Below, piece by piece: positions 10,799-36,715 of a DNA stretch of 36,715 nucleotides; position 1 is the first letter of the stretch; each line of letters starts with the position of its first letter. This DNA comes from Candidatus Woesearchaeota archaeon (lineage in GTDB: Archaea > Nanobdellota > Nanobdellia > Pacearchaeales > GW2011-AR1). Below the pieces are notes generated by a model. The model did no database searches. It worked only from the letters and a program-made list of their open reading frames with translations, and was not told the origin of the DNA. The stretch is from the NCBI GenBank assembly GCA_964357505.1, contig CAYHLN010000003.1, positions 1 to 36,715 of the forward strand, written 5' to 3'. The position numbers and the translations under genes are program-made.

Positions 10799-11143
10799 TT
10801 AACGCGCTACCGAGTACGCCTCATGAGGAATGAGCAAAGGCGAAGGGGCACTCACCTCAATAACGGTATTGTCCAAGCAAATATGCTCTGCCCTTCCAAG
10901 GTGCAGCGCTTGTTGAAGAACAGCACCCACATCATTACTAAGCCCATACCTATTCATTAATAATCGAAAAAAATGATTCGTGCCAGCAAGAGAAATATCA
11001 AAAGATGTGGACCAGACCTTGTCTCCTATGCCACGTTCAGGTGACTGTCGATACACGTGCCAGAGCAAACCCTGCACAAAATCGTACACTTGCACAGAAC
11101 GTCCATTCGTGACAATAACCTGTTTGCTTACTTCCCCATACAT
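10799..11143 (-). CDS. hypothetical protein, 114 aa
   Basis: ATG-initiated ORF with ordinary composition and no recognisable motif. It begins 5 nt downstream of the 3' end of tRNA-Val on the same strand. Confidence 0.45.
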   Translation of the reverse strand: MYGEVSKQVIVTNGRSVQVYDFVQGLLWHVYRQSPERGIGDKVWSTSFDISLAGTNHFFRLLMNRYGLSNDVGAVLQQALHLGRAEHICLDNTVIEVSAPSPLLIPHEAYSVAR

Positions 11144-11148
11144 GGTAA

Positions 11149-11220
11149 TGGCCCTGCGCGGAATCGAACCGCGGCTTCATCCACGTCAAGGATACGGGCT
11201 AACCGTTACCCCACAAGGCC
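11149..11220 (-). tRNA. tRNA-Val (anticodon GAC)
   Basis: The reverse complement folds as follows. Acceptor GGCCTTG/CAGGGCC (one G-U); D-arm GGGT..GCCC; anticodon arm TATCC-TTGACGT-GGATG; T-arm CGCGG-TTCGATT-CCGCG; discriminator A. TTTTTATA (11244-11251, minus strand) lies 24-31 nt upstream. Confidence 0.9.
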
Positions 11221-11291
11221 CCATAAAGACACGCAAGGCATGCTATAAAAACCTTAGTGAATATTTTTAAACAAGCAATCCTTGTAGAGAT

Positions 11292-11552
11292 ATGGCATTT
11301 TTCAAGAGCGCGCCCCAGAATAAATTCTGTCCCGTGTGCGGCACCCAACTCAAAGCAGCTGATGGCTATTGTATCAAGTGTGGTTATTCATTCCAAGCGC
11401 GTCAGAAAAGCATGCGCCGCGGCGTCAAGTGGCGCAATGTTATCATCTTCCTTGTCCTGCTGGCGATCGTTTACTTCGGTCTTCGTTATGCAAACGATCT
11501 CACGATTATCCCTCGTTCCTTAGAAGACGCACTGAACTTTAAGTTTGATTAA
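11292..11552 (+). CDS. zinc-ribbon membrane protein, 86 aa
   Basis: CPVCG...CIKCG zinc-ribbon motif followed by one TM helix (VIIFLVLLAIVYFGL). Confidence 0.6.
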   Translation: MAFFKSAPQNKFCPVCGTQLKAADGYCIKCGYSFQARQKSMRRGVKWRNVIIFLVLLAIVYFGLRYANDLTIIPRSLEDALNFKFD

Positions 11553-34372: not shown

Positions 34373-34942
34373 ATGGTAATGGAACGCACCCTTGTCTTAC
34401 TTAAACCAGATACAGTCACCCGCTCACTGGTAGGCGAAGTCATTTCACGCTTTGAAAAGACCGGTCTCAAAATAATGGGTATGAAAATGGTCTGGGCAGA
34501 TGAAGCGCTAGCCAAAAAGCACTACACGTTAGACGAAGCCTGGGCAAAGAACGTTTATGATAAGACCAAGAAAACCAGAGAAGCAGCAAACGAGCCTTTT
34601 CCTTATCACGATCACCTTGAATACGGCCGCATGATCCAGGGCTGGAACGCAAATTTCTTACAAGAGGGCCCAGTAATTGCCCTTGTGCTTGAAGGCCCAC
34701 ACGCAGTCGAAATCGTACGTAAGATGATCGGCTCAACCGAACCGCGTCAAGCTTCTCCCGGTACGATTCGTGGTGACTATGCGATGACTGAATCCTACGC
34801 ACTTGCAAACGACAAGTCCCGTGTATTACGCAATCTAGCACACGCATCAGACTCAGTTGAAACAGCCGAGCGCGAGATTGCTATCTGGTTTACCAAGGCC
34901 GAGCTTCACAGTTACAGAAAAGAACTAGACAAACACTTGTAA
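34373..34942 (+). CDS. ndk: nucleoside diphosphate kinase (long form with internal insertion)
   Basis: ERTLVLLKPD, SRFEKTGLKI, GTIRGDY and NLAHASDSVETAEREIAIWF. Extra sequence sits between the KKHY and GPVIALVLEG blocks. Confidence 0.85.
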   Translation: MVMERTLVLLKPDTVTRSLVGEVISRFEKTGLKIMGMKMVWADEALAKKHYTLDEAWAKNVYDKTKKTREAANEPFPYHDHLEYGRMIQGWNANFLQEGPVIALVLEGPHAVEIVRKMIGSTEPRQASPGTIRGDYAMTESYALANDKSRVLRNLAHASDSVETAEREIAIWFTKAELHSYRKELDKHL

Positions 34943-35367
34943 TGATTTCAGCGAGAGAGGAAATGCATGCGAATGTCCTAGCGTGGACAGATGATTTAAT
35001 AAGAATTCTAAAAATAAGTGAAAATCTCTCTAAGCACGCAATGCGCAGAGTAAAGACGATCAAGTCGATCCTAGAAAGAACAAAAGAGGAAAAAGGACCA
35101 GAAATTATACCCTCTAAGATTCACTCAGAAGATCGAGAAATCTACGTGACTGTGCGCTCACTAGCGTGCGCTCTTCGTGTAGATGATGGAGTCTATGAAG
35201 ATACGGCGATGGGCATGGGACATGTCGACGAACTAAGACTGACAAATAATTACGAAACATTATATGAACTAATGGAAACAACAGTAATGTATGCTCAATA
35301 CGCTGGGCTCGAAAGAGAAGCAAGAAGACGAGAAAGCAGAAGGCACAGAAAACTTCCGCACGACTAA
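34942..35367 (+). CDS. hypothetical protein, 141 aa, basic C-terminal tail
   Basis: TAATG overlap with the ndk stop. No motif recognised. Confidence 0.45.
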   Translation: MISAREEMHANVLAWTDDLIRILKISENLSKHAMRRVKTIKSILERTKEEKGPEIIPSKIHSEDREIYVTVRSLACALRVDDGVYEDTAMGMGHVDELRLTNNYETLYELMETTVMYAQYAGLEREARRRESRRHRKLPHD

Positions 35368-35405
35368 GCTCAATACTTAAAAACCCCTAATTGCTGCTTC
35401 CTTGA

Positions 35406-35456
35406 GCCCTCATAGTTTATCGGATAGAAAAGTATAAATAGTTTCTAAATATGTAC
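35406..35456 (+). other. tRNA-like 5' piece (acceptor 5' strand, D-arm, stem at the anticodon-stem position)
   Basis: GCCCTCA-TA-GTTT-ATCGGATA-GAAA-A-GTATA-(15 nt)-TGTAC. CTTAAAAAC (35376-35384) lies 22-30 nt upstream, as at the intact tRNA genes. The acceptor strand pairs 7/7 with 36653-36659. Confidence 0.45.
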
Positions 35457-35460
35457 AAGA

Positions 35461-36633
35461 ATGAGAGTTCTGCTAGATGTCAAATCACGAAAAGAATTAT
35501 TTGATTACCTGAGAGGCTCGCACCATGCTAAAAATTTCGTGGAATTAGGGTCTAAAATGAATATCTCTCCTAAAACTCTCAATAACTGGAGATATAATTA
35601 CAGAAAATACATTCCAGGAAACCTAATAGAAAACTATCCTAAAAAGTTAGAGATTTTAGATACCCAGAAAGATAATTGGGGAGCGGTTAAGGCTGGAAAG
35701 ATAGGAGGGAAGAAAAATGTTGAAAATCTTAAGAAATTATGGGGGGATAGAAAATATTCAGAAATGAGAGAGAGAACAGGAAGAGAAGCTATTAAGAAAT
35801 TACAAAAGAAATATGGGTTGAATTTGTCAAAAATGGCAATAGCAGGTCGAATAAAAAAAAGGGGAGAAAAAAGTGAAGAGTTAGAAAGAAAAAATGAGAA
35901 ATGGTTTACCAATCAAAAAATAATATTGGATATATCAAAAATTAATTATAGCAAAAAAGACAAAAAGAAGAAGATTATGCTCCCAACAGAAATGTCTGCC
36001 CCTTTAGCAGAGGAAATAGGCGTACATTTAGGGGATGGATGTCTTTCAATAAAAAAAAACTATTTCTCTGTCAAAACTAATAAAGTGGAAGAGAAATATA
36101 TGAGCGATTTTTTGCTCCCCCTCTATAAAAAGCTTTACAATTTAGACTTAAAATTAATGAGGTTAAAGAGTGTTTCAGGATTTGAAAGCTATTCACAAGC
36201 GCTCTATGAATTTAAGAACAAAGTTCTCAGTTTACCTTCTGGAGAAAAGATACATAAGATAGAGATACCTTCTTACATCTTAGATAGTAGAAACAAAGAA
36301 GTATATCGCGCATGTATTAGAGGCCTTTTTGATACAGATGGATTTGTGAACATAGTAAAATCGAAAAATAGCTATCCAATAATATCAATAACAATAAAAT
36401 CAGAAAAATTAATGAGTCAAGTTAAAGACATGCTAACAAAGCTAGGTTTTATTCCTGCTCTCAACAAATGGACATTAAACCTAAGCGGATACGCAATGGT
36501 AGATAAATGGGTAAAAGAGATAAATTCAAATAACCCAAAAAACCTTGCTAAATTACAGCCTCGTAGTGTAGTGGATAGCACGAGACCTTGCGGAGGTCTT
36601 AACCCGGGTTCGAATCCCGGCGAGTCCATTTAA
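35461..36633 (+). CDS. LAGLIDADG-family homing-endonuclease-like protein with N-terminal HTH-like region, 390 aa
   Basis: It has two LAGLIDADG-type motifs, LAEEIGVHLGDGCLS and ACIRGLFDTDGFV. The last 25 codons or so (PRSVVDSTRPCGGLNPGSNPGESI) are simply the translation of the embedded tRNA-Arg. Confidence 0.7.
   Translation: MRVLLDVKSRKELFDYLRGSHHAKNFVELGSKMNISPKTLNNWRYNYRKYIPGNLIENYPKKLEILDTQKDNWGAVKAGKIGGKKNVENLKKLWGDRKYSEMRERTGREAIKKLQKKYGLNLSKMAIAGRIKKRGEKSEELERKNEKWFTNQKIILDISKINYSKKDKKKKIMLPTEMSAPLAEEIGVHLGDGCLSIKKNYFSVKTNKVEEKYMSDFLLPLYKKLYNLDLKLMRLKSVSGFESYSQALYEFKNKVLSLPSGEKIHKIEIPSYILDSRNKEVYRACIRGLFDTDGFVNIVKSKNSYPIISITIKSEKLMSQVKDMLTKLGFIPALNKWTLNLSGYAMVDKWVKEINSNNPKNLAKLQPRSVVDSTRPCGGLNPGSNPGESI
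36557..36628 (+). tRNA. tRNA-Arg (anticodon GCG), embedded in the 3' end of the LAGLIDADG ORF
   Basis: D-arm GTGT-AGTGGATA-GCAC; anticodon arm AGACC-TTGCGGA-GGTCT; T-arm CCGGG-TTCGAAT-CCCGG. Acceptor AGCCTCG/CGAGTCC has two mismatches (A1:C72, C3:U70). No TATA box at the usual distance. Confidence 0.7.
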
Positions 36634-36635
36634 CA

Positions 36636-36660
36636 TGGGGTTCAATTCCTCGTGGGGGCA
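36636..36660 (+). other. tRNA-like 3' piece (T-arm plus acceptor 3' strand)
   Basis: TGGGG-TTCAATT-CCTCG-TGGGGGC-A. The T-loop is close to consensus. The acceptor strand is complementary to 35406-35412. Confidence 0.5.
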
Positions 36661-36666
36661 GTTATC

Positions 36667-36715
36667 ATGAGTAAAATATTCATCATCCATGGAACGGGCG
36701 GCAACCCAAAAGGAA
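36667..36715 (+). CDS. start of an alpha/beta-hydrolase-like protein (3' end cut by the window edge)
   Basis: MSKIFIIHGTGGNPKG resembles the N-terminal strand plus HG(x)GG oxyanion region of small serine hydrolases. Only 16 codons are visible. Confidence 0.3.
   Translation, partial: MSKIFIIHGTGGNPKG

Follow-up and report, generated by a model that had tools for sequence, protein, structure and literature searches.

A LAGLIDADG cassette with its own tRNA-Arg(GCG) gene probably interrupts a resident tRNA-Arg(GCG) gene in a DPANN archaeon

Why does a LAGLIDADG endonuclease gene lie between two complementary pieces of a tRNA gene? Homing endonucleases usually persist in essential genes by means of intron or intein splicing. 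The element considered here appears instead to supply a functional copy of the gene that it destroys. It lies in a 36,715-nucleotide (nt) stretch of DNA, called the window throughout, from a Candidatus Woesearchaeota archaeon (contig CAYHLN010000003.1 of assembly GCA_964357505.1). A first-pass annotation offered three answers: a tRNA gene with a 1.17-kb intron bearing an open reading frame (ORF), a resident tRNA gene split by a cassette that brings a replacement tRNA, or a decayed relic. The second answer has held up. A free-standing LAGLIDADG cassette with its own tRNA-Arg(GCG) gene has probably invaded the resident, ndk-linked tRNA-Arg(GCG) gene of this DPANN (Woesearchaeota-like) archaeon: intact alleles occur at the same site in relatives, the inner and outer tRNAs of the window are the same isoacceptor, and the cassette always includes a tRNA gene. 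The argument draws on the anatomy of the locus, the intact same-site alleles, a series of eroding relics, and a patchy, discordant distribution.

The disrupted gene and the cassette within it

Which gene was interrupted? Judged by their match to other loci, the two outer pieces are the ends of the resident ndk-linked tRNA-Arg(GCG) gene, because intact alleles at the same site carry matching 5′ and 3′ sequence. Direct reading of positions 35200–36715 confirmed the extent first proposed for the 3′ piece, the placing of the upstream promoter box, the start of the 5′ piece (GCCCTCATAGTTTATCGGATAGAA) at 35406, and the pairing of the acceptor strands, in which GCCCTCA (35406–35412) matches TGGGGGC of the 3′ piece at 7/7 positions. 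The four intact tRNA genes in the window (Leu, Val, Thr, and Gln) have TATA-like boxes of their own at an equal distance. The 5′ piece comprises the acceptor 5′ strand and the D arm through base 3 of the 3′ strand of the D stem; the 3′ piece comprises the T arm, the acceptor 3′ strand, and the discriminator A. The intact gene at one related locus, L173 (loci are designated by L numbers), reads GCCCTCATAGTTTATCGGATAGAA-CGTGACCTTGCGGAGGTCAAGAGCGA-GGTTCAATTCCTCGTGGGGGCA, and the window is identical to it at nt 1–24 and at nt 52–73, the latter a run of 22 nt (36639–36660). The TGGGG form of the T stem seen in the 3′ piece is present in the intact allele at L139. A metagenome scan with the 3′ piece as query (GGTTCRAWTCCTCGTRGGGGC) returned 120 loci, mostly intact, uninterrupted tRNA-Arg genes; GCG predominates, CCT, TCT, and some Thr and Lys genes are also represented, and the 5′ halves of the intact tRNA-Arg genes equal the 5′ piece of the window. 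The resemblance of the outer pieces to an intact tRNA-Arg(GCG) gene is far beyond chance.

What is missing is the middle of the gene. Nucleotides ~25–48 of the resident, which form the anticodon arm and variable loop, are absent from the window locus, and hence removal of the ORF does not leave the near tRNA-length molecule that was first envisaged. Rfam sees no tRNA in the outer pieces at E ≤ 10 and detects the inner tRNA alone. The proposal that 35406–35456 is tRNA-derived stands as far as 35429 (position 24), beyond which the sequence belongs to the cassette. Likewise, the GTATA-(15 nt)-TGTAC stem that had been placed at the anticodon position consists of the TATA-like box and spacer of the cassette, and it is conserved in no relative. 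Between nt 24 and ~nt 49 of the resident gene lies a 1.2-kb cassette (Table 1).

Table 1. Positions in the window of the disrupted tRNA-Arg(GCG) gene and the cassette
Feature	Position	Strand	Detail
TATA-like promoter box CTTAAAAAC of the resident, disrupted tRNA-Arg(GCG)	35376..35384	+	−30 to −22 from 35406
Outer 5′ relic, nt 1–24 of the resident tRNA-Arg(GCG)	35406..35429	+	24/24 match with the intact allele at L173
Cassette left end: A-rich bases resembling a B recognition element (BRE), TATA-like box, 20-nt spacer to ATG	35430..35460	+	
Cassette TATA-like box TATAAATA	35433..35440	+	20 nt before ATG
LAGLIDADG homing-endonuclease ORF, 390 aa	35461..36633	+	Pfam LAGLIDADG_3 (PF14528), E = 2e-10
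Inner, cassette-borne tRNA-Arg(GCG), presumed functional replacement	36557..36628	+	ARAGORN; Rfam tRNA, 54.4 bits
Spacer, inner tRNA to outer 3′ relic	36629..36635	+	7 nt; holds the ORF stop TAA, 36631–36633
Outer 3′ relic, ~nt 49–73 of the resident tRNA-Arg(GCG)	36636..36660	+	TGGGGTTCAATTCCTCGTGGGGGCA

The left end of the cassette is a putative promoter for a leaderless endonuclease mRNA. When 36 loci of the Arg(GCG), Arg(CCT), and His clades were compared, 29 had a TATA-like 8-mer 20–23 nt (mode 21) upstream of the ATG, preceded by purine-rich bases that include the GGATAGAA of the relic. This geometry fits archaeal promoters of leaderless mRNAs. The sequence of the spacer from box to ATG is unconserved among related loci. 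Between the D arm and the ATG, no anticodon arm is conserved over 20 loci; the TATA-like box alone is. Two candidate features were discarded: TTTCTAA in the window spacer lies at the wrong distance to be the anticodon loop of a tRNA and is taken as chance, and a possible pairing of the TATA region with the spacer that follows the inner tRNA (6/7 by eye in two loci) was not seen in others.

The LAGLIDADG ORF and the embedded tRNA-Arg gene were both recognized correctly at the outset, and the tRNA is Arg(GCG) by ARAGORN and Rfam alike. The two overlap. The conserved part of the protein stops near residue 365 (36555), and the final 25 codons are read-through into the tRNA gene. Homologues number 109 in all, with >80 at 48%–69% identity; named sources are Woesearchaeota, Pacearchaeota, Nanoarchaeota, and Aenigmatarchaeota genomes. 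Many homologues end in S-(V/I)-V-D-S-T-x-P-C-G, which is the translated D arm and anticodon arm of a tRNA, and the layout of ORF followed by tRNA is therefore conserved. The window protein is a single chain with two LAGLIDADG motifs, LAEEIGVHLGDGCL and IRGLFDTDGF, and the conserved acidic residues are present: among 31 aligned sequences, G191, D192, G193, D291, T292, and G294 are invariant, and D293 is nearly so. An AlphaFold2 model (mean predicted local distance difference test score, pLDDT, 88.6) has the predicted pseudo-dimeric alpha-beta-beta-alpha-beta-beta-alpha fold. The tRNA-encoded tail (368–390) has a pLDDT of ~31, as would be expected of accidental read-through. Foldseek and sequence searches both point to single-chain LAGLIDADG enzymes over ~residues 166–339; the top Foldseek matches are the TliVMA intein endonuclease, I-Tsp061I, PI-PfuI, and I-DmoI, with target-normalized TM-scores of 0.72 for I-Tsp061I and 0.64–0.69 for I-DmoI. 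An extra N-terminal helical domain of ~170 aa is predicted, for which the Foldseek and sequence searches gave no match. Going by its conserved motifs and predicted fold, the endonuclease looks intact. The ORF has a GC content of 0.318; all other segments of this length sampled in the contig are higher (minimum 0.325), which makes the ORF the most AT-rich 1.1-kb stretch among those sampled, a composition in keeping with spread. At two related loci (L202:3676–4164 and L207:2805–4179), the radA/Rad51 gene directly past the cassette carries a LAGLIDADG_3 intein; therefore, these lineages host several LAGLIDADG elements close together.

The inner tRNA gene belongs to a different sequence lineage from the resident gene. 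Every close relative has a same-strand tRNA-Arg(GCG) at the corresponding position, scoring 50–64 bits, and in all 20 close loci the endonuclease, or a remnant of it, is followed by this linked tRNA gene; the endonuclease gene of the window lies outside any intron or intein. There is no separate promoter in front of the inner tRNA, and we therefore infer that it is co-transcribed and cut out. Where relatives keep a recognizable 3′ relic, a spacer of 3–29 nt with unconserved sequence separates it from the inner tRNA. In the acceptor 5′ strand of the inner tRNA, bases 3–6 (CCTC) match the outer relic, a hint that gene conversion has taken place between the two.

Eroding relics, intact alleles, and spread

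Where did the cassette enter, and what has become of the ends of the invaded gene? At positions 22–25, intact alleles read GAA-Y, and the relics of the first five close loci compared read GAA-A. The left breakpoint falls after nt 24 because the relics switch at this point to GAA-A, followed by the TATA-like box; a GGATAGAA-A left junction is common to the loci compared later. Within the close Arg(GCG) clade, the upstream outer piece GCCCYYATAGTTYAAYGGATAGAA followed by a TATA-like box recurs, as does the downstream outer piece (C)GAGGTTCRAWTCYTCGTRGGGGCR, 7–27 nt beyond the inner tRNA. The start of the 3′ relic varies. It lies at ~nt 32 in L002, ~nt 44–45 in L207 and L001, ~nt 47 in L201, ~nt 49 in the window, ~nt 51–52 in L003, L004, and L213, ~nt 58 in L202, and ~nt 61 in L208, and the 3′ relic is wholly absent in several other loci. 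The simplest history would be a clean insertion at 24/25, with the 3′ remnant then eroded from its inner side.

Across 20 loci of the clade, the relics form a series from pristine to unrecognizable. Both relics are pristine in L001 and L002 (24/24 each) and in the window (24/24 for the 5′ relic and 21/24 for the 3′ relic); they are partly eroded in L202, L204, L207, L208, and L211, and unrecognizable in L006 and L009. In eight loci (the five partly eroded ones, L005, L006, and L009), the 3′ piece is cut short, interrupted, or missing. For example, it is truncated in L202, L208, and L211, and in L207 it has a 57-nt insertion in the T loop. The cassette itself decays in L160 (reverse complement, ~10810–11350), where only the C-terminal ~130 aa of the endonuclease are left and the outer 5′ relic is fused straight to this remnant; the inner tRNA-Arg(GCG) is intact there, as is a pristine outer 3′ relic. 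With nt 25–48 missing, no bulge-helix-bulge (BHB) motif, and relics eroding from locus to locus, the outer gene is, to all appearance of its sequence, dead. The idea of a decayed relic, the third of the original answers, thus holds for the outer pieces as a class, and the window is an instance in which they are still pristine.

Two sets of loci outside this series show tRNA fragments of their own. In L115, an inner tRNA-Arg(TCG) is followed after 12 nt by an outer-type 3′ relic (GGTTCAAATCCTCGTGGGGGC), and tblastn at E ≤ 1e-5 found no match to the window endonuclease in that locus; it may be a cassette remnant with another cargo isoacceptor. In L088, L090, and L182, tRNA-Arg(CCT) 3′ halves begin within the anticodon stem, with unrelated sequence upstream. 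These look like attachment-site remnants of integrated elements, unrelated to the cassette, and their hosts are possibly bacteria rather than archaea.

The uninterrupted allele that the first-pass annotation proposed to look for does exist. A tblastn search with the neighboring genes of the window, together with further locus look-ups, found ndk directly upstream of an intact tRNA-Arg(GCG) in L168, L159, L096, L188, L151, L137, L116, L173, L155, and L144, and upstream of a split gene with endonuclease in the window, L001, L201, L202, L206, L207, and L208. At the ndk-linked site, at least 10 loci thus have an intact gene and at least 7 carry the insert. In a neighbor-joining tree of ndk (a short protein; no support values), intact and cassette-bearing alleles interleave, and the ndk of each cassette-bearing locus is closest to that of an intact locus, not to that of another cassette-bearing one. 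For example, the window ndk is 72% identical to that of L168 (intact) and 67% to that of the nearest other cassette-bearing locus, and the ndk of L001 is 88% identical to that of L144 (intact) and 80% to that of the nearest other cassette-bearing locus. The endonuclease tells a different story from ndk: L001 and L202 share 80% identity in the endonuclease and 69% in ndk, whereas L001 and L207 share 60% in the endonuclease and 80% in ndk. Presence and absence at one site are therefore discordant with the host phylogeny. A cassette allele that lacks nt 25–48 cannot revert, and so several independent gains are needed. The interleaving of alleles and the discordance between endonuclease and ndk are suggestive, rather than conclusive, of repeated horizontal invasion.

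Is this an isolated case? At least 427 relatives of the endonuclease turned up when species-representative genomes were scanned. Of 80 loci fetched, 50 have a same-strand tRNA called by ARAGORN abutting the 3′ end of the ORF, an underestimate because ARAGORN missed some intron-containing tRNAs. The tRNA is His(GTG) in 15 loci, Arg(GCG) in 9, Ile(GAT) in 6, Arg(CCT) in 5, Arg(TCG) in 3, and others in 12. Endonucleases of the Arg(CCT) clade are ~27%–30% identical to that of the window. L051 and L030, which belong to this clade, share the layout of the window: an outer 5′ half reaching to the D stem is followed by an A-rich stretch and TATA-like box, 21 nt, and ATGAGA; downstream come an inner tRNA-Arg(CCT) and then an outer T arm and acceptor strand. 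The outer acceptor strands pair at 7/7 positions in L051, and the pairing is partly decayed in L030. The His clade (L013–L029) has the endonuclease followed by tRNA-His(GTG). Several of its loci have a D-arm-like remnant (TAGTTTAATCGGTAGTAC) adjoining the TATA-like box, with no 3′ relic present, and in the loci checked a hisS-like gene, starting with the K-G-x-R-D-F motif that typifies histidyl-tRNA synthetase, comes directly after the inner tRNA-His. The element is apparently a widespread free-standing homing endonuclease with cargo. The chances are evenly balanced that it represents a class, widespread in DPANN and other archaea, of homing cassettes that compensate for their own damage, each with a leaderless promoter and its own tRNA gene (Arg-GCG, Arg-CCT, His, Ile, or others) and each cutting, destroying, and replacing the resident isoacceptor gene.

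How would such a cassette spread and persist? First, the endonuclease would cut intact tRNA-Arg genes of the resident type near the junction of the D arm and anticodon arm. Second, repair off a cassette-bearing allele would copy the cassette in, with the tRNA ends and neighboring DNA serving as homology. Third, a single transcript would hold the endonuclease mRNA and the cargo tRNA, and RNase P and tRNase Z would cut the tRNA free. It could then substitute for the destroyed gene, making the insertion tolerable without splicing. Once the replacement had happened, the cassette would be hard to lose.

An alternative is that the locus is a fossil: a single ancient insertion, inherited vertically, with an endonuclease that is now inactive or domesticated and with outer pieces kept in the window for another reason or by chance. 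Cassettes that diverge by ~40% in protein, and are hence old, fit this account, as do degraded copies such as L160 and the eroded relics, and the activity of the endonuclease is itself deduced from sequence. We nevertheless regard the fossil account as unlikely. Intact alleles could not be regenerated from an allele without nt 25–48, yet both states interleave among close relatives by ndk. The discordance of endonuclease and ndk similarities speaks against vertical inheritance as well, as does the near-invariance of the catalytic motifs across the aligned homologues. Finally, the cassette is found in different tRNA-Arg genes and contexts, including another isoacceptor gene.

Several observations do weigh against invasion by a self-compensating cassette. 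First, replacement is not always like for like. The 3′ relic of L002 keeps TTTCTAA-GGGGT-TAAGAT, and the TTTCTAA loop means that the gene invaded there was a tRNA-Arg(TCT); the destroyed gene is thus TCT, whereas the supplied gene is GCG. Second, simple neutral decay would not predict that the 5′ relic is the better kept of the two: a relic score of at least 20 is reached by the 5′ relic in 12/20 loci but by the 3′ relic in 7/20. The 5′ relic may have a role as a BRE, operator, or homology arm. Third, the inner tRNA of the window might be impaired by two mismatches in its acceptor stem, which forms 5/7 pairs (A1.C72 and C3.U70 are the exceptions; 36557–36563/36621–36627); the stem is 7/7 paired in 15/16 relatives. 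Positions 5-68 and 6-67 differ from those of L001 by compensatory changes, a sign of past selection on the stem. Fourth, the ndk tree was built by neighbor joining from a short protein and has no support values. Fifth, the cleavage activity and its site, the transcription start, use of the promoter, the function and essentiality of the inner tRNA, and continuing mobility are all read from sequence features.

Splicing and integration

Could the cassette be an intron after all? In this alternative, the outer pieces are exons, and a 1.2-kb segment comprising ORF and inner tRNA is removed by the archaeal splicing endonuclease. The 7/7 pairing of the outer acceptor strands and the intact promoter of the resident gene speak for it. 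An archaeal BHB intron in a tRNA gene would also have a BHB at its boundaries, leave a complete cloverleaf, and have exons conserved in relatives, and none of these was found. A custom scanner for the strict hBHBh′ motif with a 4-bp helix, its geometry checked by hand on the intron-bearing L108, was run over all 5′ sites at 35412–35479 against all 3′ sites at 36540–36664, and found no motif joining the outer pieces (354xx to 3663x), whereas it did detect a strict motif in L032. The supposed exons lack nt 25–48, and the only anticodon-like stem is an unconserved promoter segment. When the halves are joined, as the first-pass annotation suggested, ARAGORN reports no gene, or else Phe(AAA) or Pyl(CTA) with fake introns and an "anticodon" taken from promoter sequence; a control join with nt 25–48 of L173 restored is called Arg(GCG). 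Moreover, many relatives have lost the 3′ "exon" or have it interrupted, whereas the inner tRNA is always intact. The giant-intron reading, the first of the original answers, is therefore largely refuted, and we consider it very improbable for the window.

A record-size tRNA intron is a misreading of the window, but a distant relative of the endonuclease does look like one. At L032:2454–3308 (Micrarchaeota metagenome-assembled genome, JACCLL010000016.1), the endonuclease gene lies inside a 760-nt intron at tRNA position 30/31. The strict motif there (H = CACC/GGTG; h′ ≥ 8 bp, the scanner's upper limit; h = 3 bp) looks like that of a genuine BHB intron, which would place ORF-bearing tRNA introns within the family and, to that extent, favors a giant intron in the window. 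With a second intron, ~22 nt long and placed after the anticodon loop, the exons of L032 assemble to tRNA-Thr(TGT), which ARAGORN mis-calls as Leu(CAG). We know of no report of ORF-bearing BHB introns in tRNA genes.

Other forms of RNA joining fare no better. A group I intron was rejected: Rfam gave no match to one in 35300–36715, and those published from archaea all lie in rRNA genes (PMC6125680). For a split tRNA of the Nanoarchaeum type, the anticodon arm is missing, and no complementarity was seen between the sequence past 35429 and the sequence ahead of 36636. A chimeric tRNA, in which two splicing events join outer nt 1–24, the inner anticodon arm, and outer nt 49–73 into a second tRNA-Arg(GCG), can be built in silico and is called as such by ARAGORN, but it is hardly credible: neither junction has a BHB (the lone match near a D loop has h = 2 and h′ = 2, and by a rough estimate chance alone would yield about that many strict motifs), many relatives have an eroded outer 3′ piece, and the inner tRNA would make such a product superfluous.

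Integration by an integrase is equally hard to credit. Archaeal integrative elements, such as those of the pNOB8 or SSV type, do target tRNA genes and leave fragments behind, as with a Caldiarchaeum tRNA-Thr fragment beside a recombinase element (PMC3293823), but the single ORF of the cassette encodes a LAGLIDADG endonuclease and not an integrase, and the inner and outer tRNAs differ in sequence, with no duplicated core. At the cassette bounds, neither direct repeats resembling attachment (att) sites nor terminal inverted repeats were found. Integrase and transposase models fail because there are no bounding repeats and no second ORF. The outer pieces were also considered as att-like copies of the inner tRNA, and this was rejected: the similarity is weak in most loci.

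Related systems, consequences, and neighboring sequence

What does a free-standing endonuclease with a cargo tRNA resemble? By analogy, the closest functional counterpart would be SegB of phage T4, a free-standing endonuclease in a tRNA cluster that recognizes a T-psi-C motif and drives the inheritance of its own gene and of neighboring tRNA genes (PMC2330249). In both cases, the endonuclease gene lies outside any intron or intein and near tRNA genes, a tRNA gene sequence is the likely target, and the endonuclease would be inherited together with the adjacent tRNA gene or genes at the cost of recipient alleles. However, SegB is a GIY-YIG enzyme of a phage and lies between genes, whereas the window has a LAGLIDADG enzyme of a cellular archaeon within its target tRNA gene, the middle of which is deleted and for which a whole substitute of the same isoacceptor is supplied. 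The archaeal rRNA-intron enzymes I-DmoI, I-Tsp061I, and I-PorI share the fold, archaeal hosts, and a stable-RNA gene as target. They differ in that BHB splicing restores their RNA, whereas here there is no BHB and a cargo gene would restore function, and in that the window protein has the additional N-terminal domain. The same self-compensating logic is reportedly found in the mobile ORF of Allomyces atp6, which is said to bring a replacement segment and to leave the resident part as a relic, although that case concerns a protein-coding gene, a partial, in-frame C-terminal replacement, a GIY-YIG-type ORF, and an organelle genome. Foreign DNA also parts tRNA halves in the split tRNAs of Nanoarchaeum and in the relics of integration into archaeal genomes (PMC3293823, PMC4390854), and integration relics likewise have a tRNA 5′ fragment upstream of a mobile element and then a full-length tRNA. 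The Nanoarchaeum split tRNAs, unlike the outer pieces here, are functional and are joined through BHB-forming leaders, and archaeal integration relics are accompanied by a recombinase (PMC3293823). A search of open-access full text found no account of LAGLIDADG-plus-tRNA cassettes within archaeal tRNA genes, and the arrangement is apparently undescribed.

What would follow if the cassette works as proposed? First, it would be a third way, beside self-splicing introns and inteins, to live within an essential gene. Second, selfish elements would drive the horizontal replacement and turnover of tRNA genes in small-genome archaea. Third, annotators would have an explanation for tRNA halves and duplicate-looking tRNA fragments in DPANN genomes. 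Fourth, there would be a natural family of endonucleases with predictable targets, the intact alleles being known. Fifth, the old idea that introns shield tRNA genes against invaders could be put to a natural test, since many intact same-site alleles have a small intron in the anticodon loop. Indeed, the intact ndk-linked alleles of L144, L137, L108, L111, L081, and L190 have a small canonical intron after TTGCGG, at position 37/38. Such introns could protect the gene if the endonuclease site extends into the anticodon loop.

The sequence between ndk and the tRNA gene differs among loci. In the window, the space from ndk to the disrupted tRNA holds a 141-aa ORF (34942–35367) without an NCBIfam match. 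In L201, a 149-aa ORF occupies this position; L202 has a PIN-domain gene and a small ORF there. The spacer between ndk and the tRNA gene is a variable spot.

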